Counted from the stretch's first letter, positions 4,870 through 60,998 are shown. The stretch is 64,000 nucleotides of DNA from Candidatus Magasanikiibacteriota bacterium (GCA_041674805.1 JBAYVA010000004.1:30069-94068), one strand, 5' to 3'. The notes: generated by a model from the sequence alone, not told the origin. Made by a program: numbers and translations.

Positions 4870-5889
4870 TTGTTTTTTATGAATAATGATTTACAAATAA
4901 AAAAAATTATTCAAAATAATAATTTTTCTGAGGTTGAAATTAAACTTAGAAAAATTATTATTGATCCTGTTGCTAAGGATGTCTTTTGGGGTATATTGGA
5001 TGAGGATTATTCTTTTGCGGATAATAAAAAAATACAAAATGATTGGTGGAAATTATATAGAATGTATGTAGAAATTTGTTGGAAAAAAATGCCAATGTTG
5101 CATATTGAATTTGTAAATAATCATTTATTTGCAAAACAATTAGTAATTGCTAGTGTACTTAAATTTGAACCTATTGAAACTTTATTAAACTATTTGGGTT
5201 CTAGATTTCTTTTGGAAGAAGAACAAATGTCTGAATATAAAAAAATAAAAGAAAGTATTTTCAATTCTAATATTGTTTTAGGTACATATAAAGGAAAAAA
5301 TGTTATTCAAAAAGAATTAATACAAGAAATTACAGAATTAAATAGTAAAAGTAACCCTACATTGGAGTTAGCTAATTTAAAAGCAAAATTAGAAGAAATA
5401 TTTTTTTCTAATTTTCCAAATGATTTGAATTTTGATAATTTTTTTGTAAATAAAAGAGAAGTTGTTGTAACATTTTTTTCTTTTGTACATTTTTTGATAG
5501 GTGTTCAACCAAAAAGTATTTCAAGATTTATTGATTTGTATTTTAATGGTAAAGAAATACTGAATAAATCAGAATTCTCTAATATCAATAATGCTTTGGA
5601 CGAAATAGTCAATTTAGATACTGACATTGTTGAAAATATAGAAAACAATGAAGATCTTTTATCTAATAGTACAAGCAATTTAGACAATAAATATTTGCAA
5701 ATCAAATCCCAACTAGAACAACAATTTTCTTATGATGAAAATGGAGAGTTGACTCCAATAGAAGAAGTTTTGAATATTTTGTCTCAAATGGCGGAAGAAC
5801 AAGGTGATGTAAATATTGAAGAGTTGTATATGTTTGATGAAAATGCTGGTAAGTTTGTCTGGAACGAAGAATTAACTAATGCTAAATAA
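4870..5889 (+). CDS. hypothetical protein (T4SS-cluster associated)
   Basis: Long ORF co-directional within the T4SS-like operon; no recognisable motifs. Confidence 0.5.
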   Translation: MFFMNNDLQIKKIIQNNNFSEVEIKLRKIIIDPVAKDVFWGILDEDYSFADNKKIQNDWWKLYRMYVEICWKKMPMLHIEFVNNHLFAKQLVIASVLKFEPIETLLNYLGSRFLLEEEQMSEYKKIKESIFNSNIVLGTYKGKNVIQKELIQEITELNSKSNPTLELANLKAKLEEIFFSNFPNDLNFDNFFVNKREVVVTFFSFVHFLIGVQPKSISRFIDLYFNGKEILNKSEFSNINNALDEIVNLDTDIVENIENNEDLLSNSTSNLDNKYLQIKSQLEQQFSYDENGELTPIEEVLNILSQMAEEQGDVNIEELYMFDENAGKFVWNEELTNAK

Positions 5890-12650: not shown

Positions 12651-12651
12651 G

Positions 12652-12738
12652 CGGAGAGATAGGGATTCGAACCCTAGGAAGGTTTGACCCTTCAACGGTT
12701 TTCAAGACCGCCGCCATAGACCGCTCAGCCATCTCTCC
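12652..12738 (-). tRNA. tRNA-Ser (anticodon UGA)
   Basis: Acceptor GGAGAGA/TCTCTCC, G73, long variable arm, anticodon loop CUUGAAA, T-loop GTTCGAATC; no encoded CCA. Confidence 0.85.
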
Positions 12739-12740
12739 AG

Positions 12741-12774
12741 TTTAACTTTTGACAGTTAACATTTGACAATTAAC
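12741..12774. repeat. direct repeats TTGACA(G/A)TTAAC between tRNA genes
   Basis: tttgacagttaacatttgacaattaac; related copies at 12944-12978 and 12988-13023. Confidence 0.5.
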
Positions 12775-12852
12775 TTATTAAAATAAGGTTAATTTTTAAT
12801 AGTCAAATGTAAATTGTCAAGATTGGTGTATTGTTACTATGATGATCAAAAG

Positions 12853-12941
12853 CGGAGAAGGCGGGATTCGAACCCGCGGTCCGGTTTTACCCAGACAACA
12901 CATTAGCAGTGTGCCCCTTTCGGCCTCTCAGGCACCTCTCC
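12853..12941 (-). tRNA. tRNA-Ser (anticodon GCU)
   Basis: Acceptor GGAGAGG, long variable arm, anticodon loop CUGCUAA, GTTCGAATC T-loop; no encoded CCA. Confidence 0.85.
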
Positions 12942-13026
12942 TATGACAACTTTTAACAGTTGGCAATTGACTATTAACTTTTTTTAAGATGTCAACTGTC
13001 ATTTGTTAAGTGTCAAAAGTTGGTCC

Positions 13027-13116
13027 TGGCGGAGAGACAGGGATTCGAACCCTGGGTCCCCTTGCGGAGACTGCAGTTTAGTAAACTGCTGCTATCGGCC
13101 ACTCAGCCATCTCTCC
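13027..13116 (-). tRNA. Ser-type (class II) tRNA with atypical anticodon loop UUACUAA (anticodon ACU), CCA encoded
   Basis: Acceptor and D arm are identical to tRNA-Ser(UGA). Anticodon stem GCAGU/ACUGC with loop TTACTAA, long variable arm, G73 and a genomically encoded CCA. Confidence 0.6.
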
Positions 13117-15730: not shown

Positions 15731-15752
15731 TTTGTGGACATATAATATATAA

Positions 15753-15786
15753 AATTGGCTTAAATAAGCCAATTTTTGTTTTTTAT
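15753..15786 (+). terminator. rho-independent terminator after VanW-like gene
   Basis: Hairpin ttggctt-aaat-aagccaa followed by TTTTTGTTTTTT. Confidence 0.65.
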
Positions 15787-15798
15787 CCTTATTTACTC

Positions 15799-15827
15799 TT
15801 GACAACTTTGTTATAATATGTTATTAT
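15799..15827 (+). promoter_or_regulatory. strong sigma70-like promoter (TTGACA-17-TATTAT) driving the non-coding unit
   Basis: TTGACA at 15799-15804 and TATTAT at 15822-15827 with exact 17-bp spacing. No ORF follows. Confidence 0.45.
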
Positions 15828-15833
15828 ATCAAG

Positions 15834-16159
15834 TCGTATAAAAAAAGGTTTAACAGTTTAAGAATGTAGTAAAGTATATTTTTGACACATAAGCTTAGTA
15901 AATAAAAATATACGCTCCTGTATTCACAACTATAAATAGTTAAAGCTAAACGAGGATTTAGGATAGTGCGTTTTTCTTAGTAAAGTCTATTAAAAACATA
16001 TTATCCTGTATCCACGACAAGCATGGGGGTGTGTTGTAGGCTAGGGCAGGCTACGGCTCGCAATTGACCTAGAACACACCTTCTTGGATCAGGTAAGGAC
16101 TCAATTCCTTAATCTTTTAAATATTCCTCAACACATTTGTGCTGAGGAATTTTTTTTTG
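15834..16159 (+). ncRNA. candidate structured ncRNA, RNase P RNA (rnpB)-like
   Basis: Promoter-to-terminator unit of about 325 nt with no ORF of 60 aa or more. It contains GCUAGGGCAGG (RNase P CR-II), a 13-nt exact match GGAUCAGGUAAGG (the E. coli M1 RNA J11/12 region), and AGUAAAGUCU resembling the P4 5' strand. A canonical P4 3' strand (ACAGAA..GGCUUA) was not found in the expected place. Confidence 0.4.
16124..16159 (+). terminator. rho-independent terminator ending the ncRNA unit
   Basis: Hairpin cctcaac-acatttgt-gctgagg followed by AATTTTTTTTT. Confidence 0.6.
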
Positions 16160-16237
16160 ACACTGATTACACTGATTAGAAAAGATTACACTGAAAAATA
16201 AGCTAAGATCTTTAAACCATTATTTTTGTTTATTTAA

Positions 16238-16262
16238 AAACAGACGTGTATTAGTCTGTTTT
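16238..16262 (-). terminator. terminator hairpin overlapping the stop of the HAD hydrolase gene
   Basis: aacagac-gtgtatta-gtctgtt with T-runs on both strands. Confidence 0.5.
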
Positions 16263-17589: not shown

Positions 17590-18573
17590 TTACCTTATAT
17601 TCTTATTTTTTTCAATTGTGGACCAAACATTTTCTATAGCTTCTTCAATAGGACCATTTATTTCAAAACCAGCAGCTTTTTTGTGTCCACCACCACCAAA
17701 TAATCTGGCAATTTGTGAAAGATCTAAGGTATCTAAAGTAGTTCTAGTACTGACTTTTACATTGCCATTAGCTTTTTCTTTGAAAAGAAATATAGCTTGT
17801 CCTTCAGTAAGATGATTCATCATGTTTGATAATCCTCCAATTTCTTCTTCGCCCAAATTATATTTTTGTAAGTCAGCTTGTTTTATATAAGTATAAACAA
17901 TATTATTTTTTTCATTTATATTTAAACGATTGAGTACAGTACCCCATAATTGTAAAATAGCAATATTTTTGTCTAAAACGATATAATCGTGTATTTTTTT
18001 GAATTTGGCTCCTTTGTTTACTAGGTAACTAGCCATAGACAAGGCTTCTTTTGATGTGGCAGCATTAGAAAAGTTATCAGTATCTGTAATAAGACCTGTG
18101 AGTAATGCTGTAGCCATTTCACTATTTATTTTTATTTTATTTACTAAAAAGTAGTTGTATATTACTTCTACTGTGGAAGATAAAGTTTCTCTTACTAAAT
18201 TGAAGTTGCCATATTGAATATTACTAGCATGGTGATCTATGTTGATGATAAAAGGTTTTTTTTGGTTTTTTATAAATTCATCAATGCCGGCATAAGATAG
18301 GTCTCCTGAATCAAAAACCAAAATAGCTCCAAATTGTGTTTTCCAGGTATCTGGATGAGTTTGTATTTGGTCAATATTTTTTAGATATTCAAATTGTTTT
18401 GAAGCCGGTGTTTTGCAAAATAGAGTGTATTTTTTGTTTAATTGTTCCAACATTTGGGAAAATGAGGAAACAGAACTACAAGCGTCGCCATCAGGATTTT
18501 GATGTGCTACTAGCAAAAAATTGTCCTTTTGAAGGATTTCAGAGTGAATTTGTTTGGCTATTCTATGTGGCAT
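17590..18573 (-). CDS. nrnA: DHH/DHHA1 phosphoesterase (NrnA-like nanoRNase/pAp phosphatase)
   Basis: DHH motifs LVAHQNPDGDA, FDSGD and NIDHH, with a C-terminal DHHA1 motif GGGH (FGGGGHKKAAG). Confidence 0.75.
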   Translation of the reverse strand: MPHRIAKQIHSEILQKDNFLLVAHQNPDGDACSSVSSFSQMLEQLNKKYTLFCKTPASKQFEYLKNIDQIQTHPDTWKTQFGAILVFDSGDLSYAGIDEFIKNQKKPFIINIDHHASNIQYGNFNLVRETLSSTVEVIYNYFLVNKIKINSEMATALLTGLITDTDNFSNAATSKEALSMASYLVNKGAKFKKIHDYIVLDKNIAILQLWGTVLNRLNINEKNNIVYTYIKQADLQKYNLGEEEIGGLSNMMNHLTEGQAIFLFKEKANGNVKVSTRTTLDTLDLSQIARLFGGGGHKKAAGFEINGPIEEAIENVWSTIEKNKNIR

Positions 18574-18752
18574 ATTTGTCTTATTTTACAGCCAGCCATT
18601 ATATCTGATATTCATATTATTGTCAACTATCAAGAAAAAAGGTATAATAGATGTAATTTGTAGAATAACTATTACTTATTTTATAGTTTGTCTTATTTAT
18701 ACAGTTTTTAGTTAAAAGTTTGTAAAGTTCATTCCGCCCAAGGCGGACAAGA

Positions 18753-18818
18753 AAGTTTATAAAGTAATTTGATTGTATATTTATTTTAAAAAACTTTATA
18801 AACTTTTAACTTTATAAA
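18753..18818. repeat. cluster of TTTATAAA-core motifs (ACTTTATAAAC / GTTTATAAAGT) upstream of smc
   Basis: aagtttataaagt, then actttataaac twice. Same family as the motifs at 28915-29009 and 50093-50133. Confidence 0.55.
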
Positions 18819-18895
18819 CTATTTTTATAATAAAATGATATATACTTTAGAAAGTAGTATTTTGTTTAATATTTAATTTATCGTTTGAGTAGTGT

Positions 18896-28906: not shown

Positions 28907-28914
28907 TGTATTTA

Positions 28915-28983
28915 GTCCATAAAGTTTATAAAGTCTATAAAGTAAAAAGTTGTGATTTTACGGACTTTATAAACTTTATGGAC
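28915..28983. repeat. perfect 21-bp inverted repeat (GTCCATAAAGTTTATAAAGTC ... GACTTTATAAACTTTATGGAC) between gmd and fcl
   Basis: Arms at 28915-28935 and 28964-28983 are exact reverse complements, with a 28-bp spacer. A third half-site, ggactttatgaac, lies at 28997-29009. Confidence 0.7.
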
Positions 28984-29002
28984 TTTAAATTTTAAGGACT
29001 TT

Positions 29003-30062: not shown

Positions 30063-30308
30063 ATGTCTGAAATCAAGCCCAACGAAGTATATACAACTAC
30101 AGAAGCTCAAGATTTACTAAAAATTAGTAGTAGTACCATGAAACGCCTGCTTAAACAAGGTCTTATTCGTGCTAATAAGATTGGTAAACAATACAGAATT
30201 CTTGGTCATGAACTTTTGCGTTTGCTTTCGCCTGTTGTAGACCAAAGGGTCACTGATTTATATCAAAAGGTGAAGATAAAAACAATTGAGAAAATTGATA
30301 AATGGTAG
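30063..30308 (+). CDS. small helix-turn-helix DNA-binding protein (excisionase/MerR-like HTH_17)
   Basis: YTTTEAQDLLKISSSTMKRLLKQGLIRANKIGKQYRI pattern of excisionase-family HTH domains. Confidence 0.5.
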   Translation: MSEIKPNEVYTTTEAQDLLKISSSTMKRLLKQGLIRANKIGKQYRILGHELLRLLSPVVDQRVTDLYQKVKIKTIEKIDKW

Positions 30309-48621: not shown

Positions 48622-48685
48622 CTTAGAAGTTTGTAAAGTTAATAAAGTAACTGTTTTTGATATTTCAACTTATTATACAGCTTTT

Positions 48686-48724
48686 CAGGCCTTTTTAGCC
48701 TTTCAAGCATTTTAAGCCTTTTTA
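48686..48724. repeat. phased (A)GCCTTTT-type 9-10-bp repeats upstream of ugd
   Basis: caggccttttt agcctttca agcatttta agccttttt; same family as 57495-57539, 60861-60953 and (reverse orientation) 57319-57362. Confidence 0.55.
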
Positions 48725-48725
48725 T

Positions 48726-50090: not shown

Positions 50091-50092
50091 AA

Positions 50093-50133
50093 AGTTTACA
50101 AACTTTATGAACTTTATAACTTTACAAACTATA
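50093..50133. repeat. tandem ACTTTAT(A/G)AAC / TTTACAAAC motifs immediately upstream of galE
   Basis: agtttacaaactttatgaactttataactttacaaactat runs straight into the ATG. Confidence 0.55.
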
Positions 50134-55694: not shown

Positions 55695-55825
55695 ATATAT
55701 TAGTGAAATTTTTATGTATATTTAAGCTCCAAAATTCAGCTTGAAGCGATTTTGTTTTTAGAGTATAATTACTATCGTAAAATTTAAGATCATAAATCCT
55801 AAATTAAAAATCAGATTTTTGATTA

Positions 55826-55875
55826 AACCTATTTTTACCTAGTACCTAACACCTAATATCTAAAACCTAAAAAAA
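55826..55875. repeat. ACCTAA-type roughly 7-bp tandem repeats immediately upstream of pyk
   Basis: aaacctatttttacctagtacctaacacctaatatctaaaacctaaaaaaat runs into the ATG. Confidence 0.45.
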
Positions 55876-55876
55876 T

Positions 55877-57313
55877 ATGGAAAAACAAACCAAAATTGTC
55901 TGTACTATTGGACCTTCTTGTGAAGATGTAGAAACTCTTGAAAAGATGGTAAGGGCGGGGATGAATGTAGCTAGACTCAATTTTTCACACGGCACTTATG
56001 AAAATCATGCAATGCTTATAAAAAATATTCGTGAAGTAGCTGAGAAGACTGGTGAACCTGTTGCGATTTTGCAAGATTTGTCAGGACCAAAAATTAGAAT
56101 AGAAAAAGTTGCCGAAGAAGGTGTGAATTTGGTAGAAGGGGCTGAAGTAATTTTTTCTACAGATCCTTCTGACAAAGATGCTATTCAAGTTGGTTACAAA
56201 GAGTTGCATAAGTTTATCAAAAAAGGTGAAGCCATGTTTCTCGATGATGGTAAAATAGAAGTCGTAGTAAAAGAAGTTCAAGACAAAAAAATTATTACAA
56301 AAGTTGTCGTTGCTGGAGTTTTGTTTTCCAACAAAGGTATCAATATTCCTAAGACTGATTTGACAGGATTAGAAGTTTTGACAGAAAAAGATAAAGCTGA
56401 TGCAAAATTTGGTGTAGAACAAGGAGTAGATATGATTGCTTTGTCTTTTGTAATGCGTCCAGATGATATTCTTGATTTACGTTATCATATCAAACAGATG
56501 GAATTAGAATTGGGTATAGAGCCTCATGATCCTATAAAGATTATCGCCAAAATAGAAAAAGCTGAAGCTGTAAAACATATCAAAGATATTATTCAAGTGA
56601 CTGATGGTATCATGGTAGCTCGTGGAGATTTGGGAGTTGAAATTCCTGCGGAAGAAGTGCCAATTGTGCAGAAAAAATTGATAGATATTGCTCTTGAAAA
56701 TGCCAAACCGGTGATTGTTGCTACTCAAATGCTTGATTCGATGCAAAATAATCCTCGTCCTACTCGTGCGGAAGTTTCTGATGTTGCCAATGCTGTGATT
56801 GATCACACAGACGCTGTAATGCTTTCTAATGAAACTGCAACTGGAAAATATCCAGTTGAAACTGTTTCGATGATGAGTAAAATTATCAAAGAAACAGAAA
56901 AATCAGAATATACCAAATTGTTTATTCGTGAACCAAAAGAAAAGACAAACAAAATAGACGACGTTATAAGTGGATTGTCCCGTCTTGTTGCTGAAGATGT
57001 GGGGGCTGATCTTATTTTGGCAGCTTCTTTATCTGGAGAAACTGGTCGTTTGATTTCTCGTTATCGTCCAAAATTTCCGATTGCAGTAGCAACCAATAGT
57101 AAGTTGGTTTCACATCAATTGAATTTATCTTGGGGTGTCTTGCCTTTTGAAGTGATTGAATGTAAAAGTATTGAAGAATTAGTTGAGCGTTCTATGACTC
57201 ATTTACGTGAGAAAAAAATAATCAAATCAGGTGATAGAATTATTGTGGTAGCTGGTGAACCTGTTGGTCATGCTGGTTTTGTTAATTTGCTTGAAGTGAG
57301 GGAAGTGAAGTAA
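55877..57313 (+). CDS. pyk: pyruvate kinase
   Basis: KIVCTIGPS, ARLNFSHG, MVARGDLGVEIP motifs. Confidence 0.9.
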   Translation: MEKQTKIVCTIGPSCEDVETLEKMVRAGMNVARLNFSHGTYENHAMLIKNIREVAEKTGEPVAILQDLSGPKIRIEKVAEEGVNLVEGAEVIFSTDPSDKDAIQVGYKELHKFIKKGEAMFLDDGKIEVVVKEVQDKKIITKVVVAGVLFSNKGINIPKTDLTGLEVLTEKDKADAKFGVEQGVDMIALSFVMRPDDILDLRYHIKQMELELGIEPHDPIKIIAKIEKAEAVKHIKDIIQVTDGIMVARGDLGVEIPAEEVPIVQKKLIDIALENAKPVIVATQMLDSMQNNPRPTRAEVSDVANAVIDHTDAVMLSNETATGKYPVETVSMMSKIIKETEKSEYTKLFIREPKEKTNKIDDVISGLSRLVAEDVGADLILAASLSGETGRLISRYRPKFPIAVATNSKLVSHQLNLSWGVLPFEVIECKSIEELVERSMTHLREKKIIKSGDRIIVVAGEPVGHAGFVNLLEVREVK

Positions 57314-57318
57314 AGTAA

Positions 57319-57362
57319 AGGCATAAAATGCCCGAAAGGCAAGAAAGGCTAGTAACCTACAT
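57319..57362. repeat. AAAGGC-type phased repeats after pyk (reverse orientation of the GCCTTT family)
   Basis: aaaggcataaaatgcccgaaaggcaagaaaggctag. Confidence 0.45.
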
Positions 57363-57494
57363 ATAAATAAAAGAATTAGATTTTATAAATAATAATCAGT
57401 TTAAATATATAAAAAATAAACGTGGTGAAATCGTTTTTCTATTTTTTAAATTAATCAAGTCCTTGGAAATCCAAAAGGATTAGTCAAACTCGTA

Positions 57495-57539
57495 AAAGCC
57501 TTTTAGGCCTTTTGGGCATTTTAAGCATTTCAAGCCTTA
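57495..57539. repeat. phased GCCTTTT-type 9-bp repeats upstream of ppsA
   Basis: aaagcctttt aggcctttt gggcatttt aagcatttc aagcctta; closely related to 48686-48724. Confidence 0.55.
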
Positions 57540-57547
57540 TTACTATT

Positions 57548-57576
57548 TTGTAAATTTTCATTTTTTGTGCTATAAT
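57548..57576 (+). promoter_or_regulatory. candidate promoter for ppsA: TTGTAA-17-TGcTATAAT (extended -10)
   Basis: TGCTATAAT at 57568-57576 with a -35-like TTGTAA at 57548-57553; about 30 nt before the ATG. Confidence 0.45.
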
Positions 57577-57604: not shown

Positions 57605-60600
57605 ATGTTAAAAAACCGCGAAAAAAAATTGCAGATCGCGGAACAAAATACTAATAAAAATAACGTGGCTAGAGATAGCAAACGTGTTTTGTGGTTTGAT
57701 GAAATTGGTATCAAAGATATACCACTTGTTGGTGGTAAAAATGCTAGTCTTGGTGAAATGTACAACAATTTGAGTAAAAAAGGTATTAGTGTTCCAAATG
57801 GTTTTGCTGTAACATCTTTTAGTTACTGGGAATTTTTGGACAAAACTGGTTTGAAACAAAAAATAAAAAATGTTGTCAAAGATTTGAATATAAATGACAT
57901 AAAAAATTTATCTCAAGTTGGTGCAAAAATTAGAAAAATGATTTTGGCTGAAAAACTTCCAAAAGAATTAGCCAAAGAAATTGATACTGCTTATACACAA
58001 TTATCCAAAGAACAAAAAATAAATAATATTGCTGTGGCAGTACGTTCTTCTGCTACTGCTGAAGATTTGCCTGATGCTAGTTTTGCTGGTCAACAAGAAA
58101 CTTATTTAAATATTGTTGGTAAAAATGATTTACAGTTGGCTGTCAAAAAATGTATTGCTTCACTTTTTACTGATAGAGCTATTTCTTATCGTGAAACCAA
58201 AGGTTTTGATCATCTTGATGTGGCTTTGTCTGTGACTGTACAAATTATGGTCGGTTCTGAATCTGGTGCTAGTGGTGTGATGTTTACGCTAGATACAGAG
58301 TCTGGTTTTCCTGGAGTTGTACTTATCAATGCCTCTTATGGTCTTGGTGAATATGTAGTAAAGGGTAGAGTTACTCCTGATCAATTTTATGTTTTCAAAG
58401 AAGGTCTGAAAAATGGCAAAAAATCTGTTATTAGTAAAATTCTGGGTACCAAAGAAGTAAAGCTTGTTTATGGTAAGACAGGAACAAAGCAAATGACAGT
58501 ACCAAAATTACAACAAAATAAATTTTCTATTACCGAAGACGAAGTTTTACAATTGGCCAAATGGGGTGTAGAAATTGAAGAATATTACAAAAAACATCAA
58601 GATATTGAATGGGCCAAAGATGGTAAAACTGGCAAATTGTATATTGTCCAAGCTCGTCCTGAAACAGTGAAAGCTAATGTAGACAAAGCTTTTATTGAGA
58701 CATATATTTTAAACAAAAAAGGTAAAGTATTACTTACAGGTACTTCTGTCGGTCAAAAGATTGGTGCTGGCAAAGTGCGTGTAATAGACAATCCAAAACA
58801 AATGAAACTTTTCAAAAAAGGTGAAGTTTTGGTGACTAGAATTACTGATCCAGATTGGGAGCCAATTATGCGTATTGCTTCAGCTATTGTGACTGAACAA
58901 GGTGGCAAGACTTCTCATGCGGCTATCGTTTCTCGTGAACTTGGCGTACCTTGTGTGGTTGGTGCCAAAAATGCTCGTAAAATTTTGAAAACAGGTGAAA
59001 AAGTAACTGTTAGTTGTACTGGCGGGGATGAAGGAACTATTTACAAAGAAATGTTGCCATTTGAAGTACAAAAAACTGAAATTAAACAAGTAGACAAAAC
59101 TAATACCAAAATCATGATGAATGTTGGTGATCCTGATAATGCTTTTTCTTTGTCATTTTTACCAAATGATGGTGTAGGCCTTGCTCGTGAAGAATTTATT
59201 TTTAGTAATTTTATTCGTATTCATCCTTTGGCTCTTGTTAATTATGATAAATTGAAAGATAAAAAAGCCAAAGAACAAATAGCTGAAATTACTCGTGGCT
59301 ATGACAAAAAGACAGATTATGCTGTAGACAAATTAGCTGAAGGTATTGCTCGTATTTCAGCGGCTTTTTATCCAAAAGATGTGATTGTCCGTTTGTCAGA
59401 TTTCAAAACAAATGAATATGCTACTCTTATTGGTGGCAAAGAATTTGAACCAAAAGAAGAAAATCCAATGCTTGGTTGGCGTGGAGCTAGTAGATATTAT
59501 TCCAAAGAATACAAACCAGGTTTCAAATTAGAATGTGAAGCTATCAAAAAAGTTCGTGAAGAATGGGGATTAAAAAATCTTATTGTCATGATTCCATTTT
59601 GTCGTACACCAGAAGAAGGACAAAAAGTATTAGATACCATGAAAGAATTTGGTCTTGAGCGTGGCCGCGAAGATTTGCAAGTTTATGTGATGTGTGAAAT
59701 TCCATCGAACGTTATTTTGGCAGATGATTTTGCTCAAATGTTTGATGGTTTTAGTATTGGTTCCAATGATTTGACACAGCTTACTTTGGGTGTAGATAGA
59801 GATTCTGCTTTGGTTAGTCATGTTTATAATGAAAGAAATCAAGCAGTAACAAAACTTATCAAAGATGTTATTAGAACTGCTCACAAACACAAACGTAAAG
59901 TTGGTATTTGTGGACAAGCTCCAAGTGATTATCCAGAGTTTGCTGAAATGCTCGTGCGTGAAGGTATTGATAGTATTTCTCTCAACCCAGATACCGTGAT
60001 TTCTACACGTGAACGTATTTCTTTTACTGAAAAAACTTTAGGTAAAAAAGGTCATAAAACACATAAAACTTATTTAGGTTTGGTGACTTTGCTTGGTATT
60101 ATTTCTGCTTTTACTATGACTTTGGGTGCTGGTTGTAATTTGTCACAAGATGTAAGTCAAAACAACAAAGCTGTAATTCAAGAAATCACACCTTCTCAAA
60201 TTCGTGAAAATGCTGAAAAAAGAATGCAAGAAAAAAAATCTCAAGAAAAATTGCAATTGACTCAGACTATTAGTATGGCAGATTTTGCTAATTTCAATTT
60301 TAAATATCCTCAAGAGTGGACTGTGAATTATTGGAATGGGGGAGTAACAGTATTTAATTCTAGTTCTAGTGAATATGTGAGTGTTTTCAAACAATTAGTA
60401 GCTCATCCTATTGCTCTTGAACAAAAAGAAAAAATAACTATAGCTGGTCGTGAAGCTTTCAAATATACTCAAGCTATTGTCAGTAGTACCAAATCTTTTA
60501 CTGTAGTTGAAGTAAATATGGGTGATTATATTTTGGAAATGAATAGTGATGCTCCAAATTTTGTAGAAATGCTCAATACTTTCCAGTTTACTAGTTCTAG

Positions 60601-60763
60601 CAATCCTGATAGACCTCTTACTCATTGGGACGTCCTAGAAAAGAGAATTTGTGTGCAAATGATTACTTATGCCAAACAAGGTGAAGCAGGTAGTTGTCAG
60701 GCTTTTCCTACGCCTTGTGATGTGCCATCTGGTTGGCAAGTATGTAATTCTTCTTCACAATAA
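57605..60763 (+). CDS. ppsA: phosphoenolpyruvate synthase (pyruvate, water dikinase) fused in-frame to a roughly 250-aa C-terminal signal-peptide/lipoprotein-like domain
   Basis: N-terminal LVGGKNASLGEMY, phosphohistidine region GGKTSHAAIVSRELGVPCVVG, and a PEP-utilising TIM barrel ending near GIDSISLNPDTV (about aa 795). It is then followed, with no stop, by KKGHKTHKTY-LGLVTLLGIISAFTMTLGAGC and a soluble Cys-containing domain. Confidence 0.75.
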   Translation: MLKNREKKLQIAEQNTNKNNVARDSKRVLWFDEIGIKDIPLVGGKNASLGEMYNNLSKKGISVPNGFAVTSFSYWEFLDKTGLKQKIKNVVKDLNINDIKNLSQVGAKIRKMILAEKLPKELAKEIDTAYTQLSKEQKINNIAVAVRSSATAEDLPDASFAGQQETYLNIVGKNDLQLAVKKCIASLFTDRAISYRETKGFDHLDVALSVTVQIMVGSESGASGVMFTLDTESGFPGVVLINASYGLGEYVVKGRVTPDQFYVFKEGLKNGKKSVISKILGTKEVKLVYGKTGTKQMTVPKLQQNKFSITEDEVLQLAKWGVEIEEYYKKHQDIEWAKDGKTGKLYIVQARPETVKANVDKAFIETYILNKKGKVLLTGTSVGQKIGAGKVRVIDNPKQMKLFKKGEVLVTRITDPDWEPIMRIASAIVTEQGGKTSHAAIVSRELGVPCVVGAKNARKILKTGEKVTVSCTGGDEGTIYKEMLPFEVQKTEIKQVDKTNTKIMMNVGDPDNAFSLSFLPNDGVGLAREEFIFSNFIRIHPLALVNYDKLKDKKAKEQIAEITRGYDKKTDYAVDKLAEGIARISAAFYPKDVIVRLSDFKTNEYATLIGGKEFEPKEENPMLGWRGASRYYSKEYKPGFKLECEAIKKVREEWGLKNLIVMIPFCRTPEEGQKVLDTMKEFGLERGREDLQVYVMCEIPSNVILADDFAQMFDGFSIGSNDLTQLTLGVDRDSALVSHVYNERNQAVTKLIKDVIRTAHKHKRKVGICGQAPSDYPEFAEMLVREGIDSISLNPDTVISTRERISFTEKTLGKKGHKTHKTYLGLVTLLGIISAFTMTLGAGCNLSQDVSQNNKAVIQEITPSQIRENAEKRMQEKKSQEKLQLTQTISMADFANFNFKYPQEWTVNYWNGGVTVFNSSSSEYVSVFKQLVAHPIALEQKEKITIAGREAFKYTQAIVSSTKSFTVVEVNMGDYILEMNSDAPNFVEMLNTFQFTSSSNPDRPLTHWDVLEKRICVQMITYAKQGEAGSCQAFPTPCDVPSGWQVCNSSSQ

Positions 60764-60822: not shown

Positions 60823-60860
60823 TGATATTTTGGATAATAAAAATGATTGTATTAGCAGAG

Positions 60861-60953
60861 TAAGCAAAATAAGCAAATTTAAGTGTAAACCTAGTAAGCT
60901 TTGTAAGCCTTGTAGGCGCCTTGTGAGCCTTGTAATCTTACGTCTTGCAAATC
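60861..60953. repeat. about six degenerate tandem roughly 9-bp repeats (TAAGCCTTG family) upstream of trhO
   Basis: agtaagctttg taagccttg taggcgccttg tgagccttg taatcttacg tcttgcaaatc. Confidence 0.5.
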
Positions 60954-60998
60954 ATACCATTTTGGTATATAATAGGAGTGTTTTTTATTAATAATAAT

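Follow-up and report, generated by a model that had tools for sequence, protein, structure and literature searches.

Tandem nonamer arrays between genes of a Candidatus Magasanikiibacteriota genome as probable arms of a small PF05635 cassette

The Locus and Its Repeat Blocks

The window, that is, the whole stretch of 64,000 nucleotides from a Candidatus Magasanikiibacteriota bacterium that was analysed, has about 30% G+C and strongly co-oriented genes, and its ppsA gene has relatives of 70-85% identity in ten public contigs of Candidatus Magasanikbacteria (Patescibacteria/CPR). Four blocks of short tandem repeats, which a first-pass annotation had located upstream of ugd, ppsA and trhO and downstream of pyk, are real and lie at or near the positions assigned to them, and the gene names ugd, galE, pyk, ppsA and trhO are correct. 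The blocks and their associated features are given below, the terms left and right arm referring to the cassette described in the next section.

48680..48724, plus strand: ugd block, a solitary array of right-arm form with five 9-bp GCHTTTNNN units
57317..57352, plus strand: block downstream of pyk, the left arm, with four units of AAAGGC/AAATGC followed by NNN
57370..57483, plus strand: remnant of a PF05635 gene (last 37 codons and stop; the first ~85 codons are deleted)
57498..57542, plus strand: block upstream of ppsA, the right arm, with five 9-bp GCHTTTNNN units
57548..57576, plus strand: ppsA promoter from a consensus scan (TTGTAA-17-TATAAT, TG extension), given as context and outside the cassette
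60858..60944, plus strand: trhO block, a solitary array of right-arm type built on the GCCTTGTAA variant, with four clear and two to three degenerate units
60945-60973: trhO promoter from a consensus scan (TTGCAA-17-TATAAT)

The array unit is composed of GC-H-TTT and three variable bases, with the GCCTTGTAA variant at trhO. The ugd block reads, in order, GCTTTTCAG GCCTTTTTA GCCTTTCAA GCATTTTAA GCCTTTTTA, and its 3' end is 1 nt ahead of the ugd ATG (48726). The left arm begins 4 nt past the pyk stop codon and its unit is the reverse complement of the GCCTTT unit; the right arm ends 5 nt ahead of the -35 box of the ppsA promoter. At trhO, the clear units GCTTTGTAA GCCTTGTAG GCGCCTTGTGA GCCTTGTAA occupy 60898-60935, the degenerate units lie to their left, and the block abuts the trhO -35 box at 60945. 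The ugd and ppsA arrays had been called near-identical; at 37/46 identical positions (80%) they are similar only.

Tandem repetition was also correctly recognised, but the period, initially given as 9-10 bp, is exactly 9.0 bp by autocorrelation. Lag 9 gives the best match in 4/4 blocks (match fraction 0.54-0.72, as against 0.29-0.57 at lag 10 and 0.21-0.29 at lag 11), with p <= 0.0005 in 2000 dinucleotide shuffles when the maximum over lags 5-13 is taken, and the period given by TRF is likewise 9. Eight short-period arrays came out of a scan of the whole window, seven of them of period 9 and all intergenic, intergenic DNA being 8.4% of the window. A regular-expression census for arrays of the GC-N-Y-.. 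type gave five matches, 0.38 being expected by chance, and four of the five are the blocks described here. None of the blocks matched a covariance model of Rfam 15 at E <= 1 or at the gathering score.

A PF05635 Gene between Two Arms

In two relatives, L001 and L003, the pyk-ppsA spacer contains an intact gene for a protein of about 120 aa between the same two arrays. Its left AAAGGC array begins at the pyk stop codon, and its right array, of five GCCTTT units, ends just ahead of the ppsA -35 box. The protein belongs to PF05635, a family named "23S rRNA intervening-sequence protein" (Pfam E 1.2e-35), with a weaker match to bAvd, and its nearest solved relatives, 2gsc and 2rld, comprise five chains each as deposited.

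The same locus is found at different stages of decay in other genomes. The window remnant aligns with residues 84-115 of the protein encoded intact in L001, with 25/32 positions identical (E 1e-15; tblastn, BLASTP), and the remnant of L008 is reduced to 26 codons. L004 has the 3' half of the gene, with a different repeat hairpin nested in the place of the 5' half. In L010 the remnant is inverted between unchanged arms, window positions 57317-57544 matching L010 6687-6466 on the reverse strand (BLAST). The left arm is at the same place in L001, L003, L004, L008 and L010, and in six genomes the right arm keeps to exactly five units at a distance of 17-18 nt from the -35 box. Since relatives carry the intact gene or its remnants between the same arrays, the blocks downstream of pyk and upstream of ppsA are the left and right inverted arms of one cassette of about 480 bp with a decaying gene. 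The local PF05635 gene is dead, so the window arrays can be regarded as relics.

Several further observations concern the genes around this cassette. A Shine-Dalgarno-like motif precedes only 2/49 window genes, whose leaders are A/T-rich (e.g., 48701-48725 and 55852-55876); the PF05635 cassette genes of the relatives have strong GGAGG/GAGGA motifs 4-8 nt ahead of the ATG. The window pyk (55877-57313) shows 93-94% nucleotide identity to L001 and L010, and ppsA (57605-60763) only 82.5%, the ppsA genes of L001 and L010 being 96% identical to each other. This discordance, seen at one locus, points to a recombination breakpoint in the pyk-ppsA spacer; the pyk ATG is also precisely where the BLAST alignment with L001 begins. 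The idea that pyk moved as a cassette whose breakpoints lay in the arrays has these identities at a single locus behind it and is noted as an aside. With an inversion in one relative and discordant gene phylogeny at pyk-ppsA, the arms appear to be sites of rearrangement. PpsA has 1052 aa, of which models of PEP synthase cover the part up to about residue 813; the remaining C-terminal extension, some 240 aa long (window 60030-60763), is conserved in relatives. The gap between ppsA and trhO contains 1.2-1.6 kb of extra DNA in L010, L001 and L008, including a G+C-rich ORF of 279 aa in L010 (10192-11031), and measures about 170-240 bp in the window and L003.

Cassettes and Single Arms at Other Sites

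A protein search returned 3865 homologues at E <= 1e-10, and the best 120 of these 3865 are 65-100% identical; the few among those 120 with a named source are labelled as Magasanikbacteria, Parcubacteria or Patescibacteria. Nine homologues that were looked up (65-89% identity) occupy nine different sites. For instance, they lie between L28 and an M50 protease, atpD and atpC, yceG and queA, a tRNA synthetase and CvpA, M17 and U32 peptidases, or a holin-like gene and an amino-acid kinase, as well as after ndk. Arms of the same family are present at 8/8 sites with readable DNA (all nine except atpD-atpC), and the right arms there usually have five units. The unit variants GCCTCT, GCCTTGTAA and GCCTCGTAA are found on both arms of a given element, and the IVP cassettes of L136, L137 and L141 have arms made of GCCTTGTAA, which is also the trhO block's unit.

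The position of the arms is also regular. The left arm typically starts at the stop codon upstream or no more than a few bases from it. The stretch of 38-49 nt from the stop codon of the cassette gene to the next ATG is usually filled by the right arm, and this is precisely the form of the ugd block. Right arms fill this gap in L131, L132, L136 and L144, and the L106 array has the same form. Every intact copy (13 of 13) points in the direction of the gene downstream of it. In the unrelated metagenomic contigs L102, L106 and L107, intergenic gaps are taken up by inverted pairs of these units with no gene between them. These are the three contigs in which arrays of this family were confirmed among the matches listed by a metagenome scan with a four-unit array pattern; the scan matched at least 120 contigs, most of the 120 listed having perfect 9-nt repeats in coding sequence and a few others, such as L022, having degenerate arrays.

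The ugd and trhO blocks have the form of cassette right arms, as if gene and partner arm had been lost, and on this form they are most likely relics derived from full cassettes. The ugd block has no partner arm nearby and no local structure (fold z = 0.03), and the trhO block has no local structure either (fold z = 0.38). Three units of right-arm type are kept ahead of the ugd ATG in L008; the trhO array is found at the same spot in L010 and is absent in L003 and L008. A riboswitch or leader for ugd or trhO was considered and ruled out, these blocks having no structure (z about 0).

Terminal inverted repeats thus occur together with at least ten dispersed insertion sites and gene-less copies, the combination by which MITE/TIR elements are recognised. 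The element contains no transposase, and no direct repeat is evident at the arm boundaries as read from the element sequences. The analysis found neither a transposase nor a target-site duplication nor an exact empty site, so that mobility is suggested solely by the many insertion sites.

PF05635 Loci beyond the Subfamily

Distant PF05635 genes, some of them on phage contigs, are also flanked by inverted tandem arrays of 7-9 bp. In L004 such genes have arrays of AATTTTGA and ATTTGAA units, and the arms of the L139 locus are made of ATTGCTATA-like units. On contigs of a viral collection the arm units are TTAGCT, GGGAGTA/TACTCCC, GAGGCTT, GGGCTTT/AAAGCCC and AATTCGT/ACGAATT (36-70% G+C); one such locus was obtained with a single-protein query and six more with an alignment query.

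The flanks of 18 PF05635 loci (at least six different units, GC 30-70%, phage contigs included) were compared with those of 48 window genes. The median local score of flank complementarity is 20.3 for PF05635 and 9.5 for the controls (p = 5e-9), 0/48 controls reaching the PF05635 median, and tandem periodicity is higher in both PF05635 flanks (p = 6e-6 and 5e-5). Inverted arrays can also flank genes outside PF05635, as the housekeeping gene smpB of L004 (minus strand, 17777-18223) is bracketed by the complementary arrays ACAATGNAA / CATTGTTAN at 17739-17773 and 18281-18326.

Pairing and Constraint of the Arms

In the minimum free energy fold of the window spacer the left arm pairs with the right arm (-58.9 kcal/mol, z = -4.5). 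The arms of L001 close around the whole gene (z = -3.5), and the gene-less pair of L106 folds with z = -4.3. Across 14 elements, unit type agrees between the left and right arms of an element (permutation p = 1e-4). In an arm alignment of 16 elements 85% of the cells pair and 18/27 positions change on both sides, with 0/500 shuffles as high, a figure inflated by the choice of a register that maximises arm identity. With the register optimised equally for controls, complementarity is 0.75 for cognate and 0.71 for non-cognate arms (p = 0.013), and that of the spacers, 0.56 versus 0.53, does not differ significantly. In the six orthologous copies, which are too closely related and share one unit family, so that this comparison has low power, cognate and swapped arms are equal in duplex energy and spacer complementarity. 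Mismatches of the G.U and A.C types are balanced (35:35) and carry no signature of RNA pairing, which favours recognition of a repeated motif, or homogenisation at the DNA level, over base pairing alone. The signatures of a selected RNA helix are therefore weak.

The motif itself is strongly constrained. The core G, C, T, T and T positions are 97% identical in six genomes (G 30/30, C 30/30), whereas the spacers are 45% identical versus 57-63% at four-fold sites of ppsA in the six genomes, that is, about neutral drift. Five units is the commonest right-arm size (9/13 independent arms). Arms and core motif are conserved in the six genomes although 4/6 are without an intact gene. That the arms outlive the gene suggests either that copies elsewhere in the genome recognise them in trans or that they have found a new use, as a stem, insulator or terminator between pyk and the ppsA promoter.

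Possible Functions of the Arms

Each of the four blocks is very likely an inverted arm from the end of a small selfish PF05635 cassette, in some cases the only arm left. Such a cassette consists of a left arm of about four to six AAAGGC+NNN units, a leader of ~25 nt with a strong Shine-Dalgarno sequence, a PF05635 gene for a four-helix-bundle protein of ~120 aa (S23p, Avd-like) and a right arm typically of five GCCTTT+NNN units. It would insert into the tiny gaps of co-directional Patescibacteria genes, placing the left arm at the upstream stop codon and the end of the right arm at the next start codon or promoter. The pyk-ppsA copy has lost most of the gene and kept both arms, and of the ugd and trhO copies only the right arm would remain. 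By analogy with rRNA intervening sequences, the arms are predicted to pair, once transcribed with the host genes, into an imperfect duplex of ~36-45 bp bracketing the gene, a potential RNase III substrate whose processing could make the insert tolerable inside operons. After decay of the gene, the arms may stay on between pyk and ppsA in the role of a stem, insulator or terminator. The arms probably either form RNase III-type stems, like those of rRNA intervening sequences, or bind the pentameric protein.

The second of these functions could also stand on its own, the arrays being binding-site registers for an oligomeric protein, foremost the homopentameric four-helix-bundle protein of the cassette itself. 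One 9-nt unit would then be bound per subunit, as in TRAP/HutP, and the pairing of the arms would be a by-product of the shared motif. The first-pass annotation had named a protein-binding array as its fallback, and this part gains some support from the conserved GC.TTT core, the drifting spacers and the fixed number of five right-arm units. The invariant core recurs every 9 nt in five copies in six genomes with free spacers between, and the commonest arm size equals the number of chains deposited for 2gsc and 2rld. The Xanthomonas S23p has likewise been described as a homopentamer (PMC4990558). The lack of a G.U excess and of cognate spacer complementarity, as well as a unit sequence that varies with the protein subfamily, point in the same direction. 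However, other subfamilies have four to about ten units of 7-8 nt, so that five is not general, and left arms range from four to six units. The protein is only mildly basic, and the arms are conserved where the local gene is dead, so that the binder must come from copies elsewhere. With this evidence on both sides, we consider binding registers an unlikely account of the arrays.

A broader proposal is that PF05635 proteins make up, together with the tandem-repeat arms on either side of their genes, a single self-recognising module that occurs in rRNA genes, operons and phages. The pentameric ring would bind its own arms as RNA or single-stranded DNA, reading their regularly spaced units (here 5 x 9 nt, one per subunit), and would in this way control excision, stability or spread of the element. 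Because other subfamilies have other unit numbers, this proposal is held to be speculative and improbable.

Alternatively, the host could have adopted the paired arms as a bidirectional terminator, insulator or processing stem between pyk and the ppsA promoter, which would account for their outliving the gene. The retention of the arms and the conservation of the core in all six genomes, four of which have lost the intact gene, are consistent with this, and so are the T-rich stretch between the stem and the ppsA promoter and the terminator-like end of each unit, GCC and a U-run. Nevertheless, a terminator scan calls two small minus-strand hairpins inside the left arm only, and not the long stem; the stems are AT-rich and interrupted, and the solitary arms would be left unexplained. 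Takeover by the host thus seems rather doubtful.

Bent DNA and Promoters

The first-pass annotation had interpreted the blocks mainly as A/T tracts phased with the helix, which would bend the DNA and act as UP-like enhancers of the downstream promoters. Two arrays do lie at about -40 to -90 of consensus promoters of the sigma-70 type, as AT-rich UP elements or phased A-tract bends would, the distance from the ppsA array to the -35 box is fixed in six genomes, and the trhO block reaches the 95th percentile of its own shuffles in a curvature model. However, a period of 9.0 bp is not that of the helix (10-10.5 bp), and the predicted bend of the three GCCTTT blocks stays within the range of shuffled sequences. 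The fraction of shuffles at least as curved was 0.18, 0.46 and 0.32 for these blocks and a borderline 0.05 for the trhO block, in a wedge model that is approximate; A6 tracts at 10.5-bp spacing, used as control, bent strongly.

The arrays are not tied to promoters either. Only 2/4 blocks precede a -35 box; of the other two, one directly adjoins a start codon and one lies inverted behind a stop codon. The ppsA promoter is kept in relatives, including the array-less L002, and the trhO promoter has the same -35/-10 boxes without an array in L003 and L008. The arrays accompany a gene, not promoters, and differ from UP elements in not being conserved with them. On period and curvature the main claim therefore fails the refutation test that had been proposed along with it; bending as enhancer is largely refuted by the period and is now very improbable. 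An interpretation as mobile element replaces that of promoter architecture.

Neutral, microsatellite-like slippage in AT-rich intergenic DNA with no common origin, which would agree with the short-period arrays of locus-specific unit and rapid turnover between relatives often carried by intergenic regions of this clade, is scarcely credible in view of the same unit family and gene recurring at many unrelated loci, a core 97% conserved versus about 60% at neutral sites, a copy number fixed at five and an inverted arrangement around the gene seen in 0/48 control genes.

Other Repeats of the Window and Its Relatives

A second period-9 family, AAAGT(N4)/ACTTT(N4), was found at 28914-28987, 50091-50132, 18715-18826 and 48626-48652. 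In the fcl leader its units make up a perfect hairpin of 22 bp (z = -6.7), and a small hairpin of this family occupies the ugd-galE gap; upstream of smc it occurs as inverted arrays, and three of its units lie just left of the ugd block. The place of the 42-bp ugd-galE hairpin of the window is taken in L004 by a PF05635 cassette whose arms are of another kind, and in L008 by those arms alone, with no gene.

The pyk 5' leader (55833-55874) contains a period-7 ACCTAAN array between the conserved pyk promoter (55741-55769) and the ATG. At the same place relatives have a AATAAACC array (L001, L008 and L010), ATCCGWAWW (L003) or none (L004). A hairpin GGATACGAAAT.../...TTTCGTATCC of ACGAAAT/TTTCGTA units occurs in L001 (1310-1380 and 7935-7975), L008 (8212-8290) and L010 (about 4940-5000), and the two L001 hairpins directly follow the -10 box in the galE and pyk leaders. 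A PF05635 gene on the viral contig L152 has AATTCGT/ACGAATT arms, to which the units of this hairpin are similar.

Elsewhere in the window, three minus-strand tRNA-Ser genes (12651-13116) with anticodons TGA, GCT and the unusual ACT are separated by spacers built of inverted short repeats of the TTGACA/TGTCAA type. The 520-bp spacer at 15731-16250, between convergent genes, has a G+C-rich stretch at about 16020-16075, a terminator-like hairpin and three copies of ACACTGATT; it gave no convincing Rfam match (best E 0.62) and no tmRNA. A small unlisted ORF (30063-30308), in the 432-bp spacer before 30392, begins MSEIKPNEVYTTTEAQDLLKISSSTMKRLLKQGLIRANKIGKQYRILG and, read by eye, resembles an excisionase or MerR-type helix-turn-helix protein.

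Comparison with Known Systems

Literature on CPR tandem intergenic repeats, on TIGR02436/PF05635 and on a link between STRR and S23 was limited to papers on the Coxiella IVS and on rRNA insertions of CPR bacteria. The cassette arrangement has no description in the searchable literature, and absence there is not proof of novelty. Its existence indicates that PF05635 cassettes are not confined to rRNA genes and also lie between housekeeping genes and inside operons. It also provides an annotation rule for Patescibacteria, in which periodic inverted 7-9-bp intergenic arrays would mark present or past PF05635 cassettes, with recognisable decay steps from intact gene to remnant, empty hairpin and single arm. 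If the self-recognising module were true, a protein family that has been without a function for 30 years would have one, and many hairpin-like intergenic repeats of CPR genomes would be its fossils.

In TRAP and HutP, evenly spaced short RNA motifs (spaced triplets) are read by a ring oligomer. The likeness is one of working only, N spaced motifs serving an N-mer ring, here five units and a pentamer; the two are not homologous, and the units here recur every 9 nt and have a core of 6 nt. The cyanobacterial STRR, tandem 7-nt intergenic units which Mazel et al. reportedly described in 1990 and which are said sometimes to extend RNA stems, share the tandem short units in intergenic DNA. They serve as a lead only, no PF05635 link of STRR being documented in the searchable literature.

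TIGR arrays, known from CPR and phages, also are short-period arrays with elements of ~9 nt in CPR genomes. A TIGR unit, however, spans 36 nt, in which two repeats of 8-12 nt alternate and two spacers measure 9 nt each, and the arrays lie beside a Tas gene with a Nop domain (PMC12045711). Here the unit has 9 nt (a 6-nt core and a 3-nt spacer) and the neighbours are ugd, pyk, ppsA and trhO; TIGR arrays were rejected for wrong unit architecture and lack of a Tas gene.

Like MITE and REP-BIME elements, the cassettes are short, dispersed, intergenic imperfect inverted repeats, and the gene-less pairs of L102, L106 and L107 resemble non-autonomous derivatives. Unlike them, full copies carry a gene other than a transposase and the arms are internally tandem-repetitive, and no target-site duplication, RAYT or transposase was seen.

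The closest parallel is found in the intervening sequences (IVS) of rRNA genes from Coxiella, Leptospira, Brucella and CPR bacteria. In the Coxiella IVS the S23p ORF is bounded by inverted repeats, with three to four GACAGAT heptamers in the 5' arm, and RNase III cuts at the first heptamer (PMC4990558); 23S_rRNA_IVP ORFs occur in rRNA insertions of CPR bacteria (PMC11270868). Both kinds of element have a PF05635 protein, an ORF bracketed by inverted repeats able to form a stem, short tandem repeats inside the arm and an ORF that decays while the RNA part persists, and both are co-oriented with, and embedded in, a host transcript. However, the cassette lies between protein-coding genes, even inside an operon (atpD-atpC), and not in an rRNA helix; its arms are almost wholly made of four to six nonamer units with an invariant GC.TTT core, and its gene has a strong Shine-Dalgarno sequence in a genome otherwise without them. 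IVS elements are removed from the transcript by RNase III, and the RNA is not religated. The IVS is defined by location in an rRNA gene (23S helix 9/25/45, or 16S), and the cassette is at pyk/ppsA in a window with no rRNA, for which reason it is not filed as a strict IVS. The element is a non-rRNA, operon-embedded variant of the IVS, with nonamer-array arms and MITE-like gene-less derivatives.
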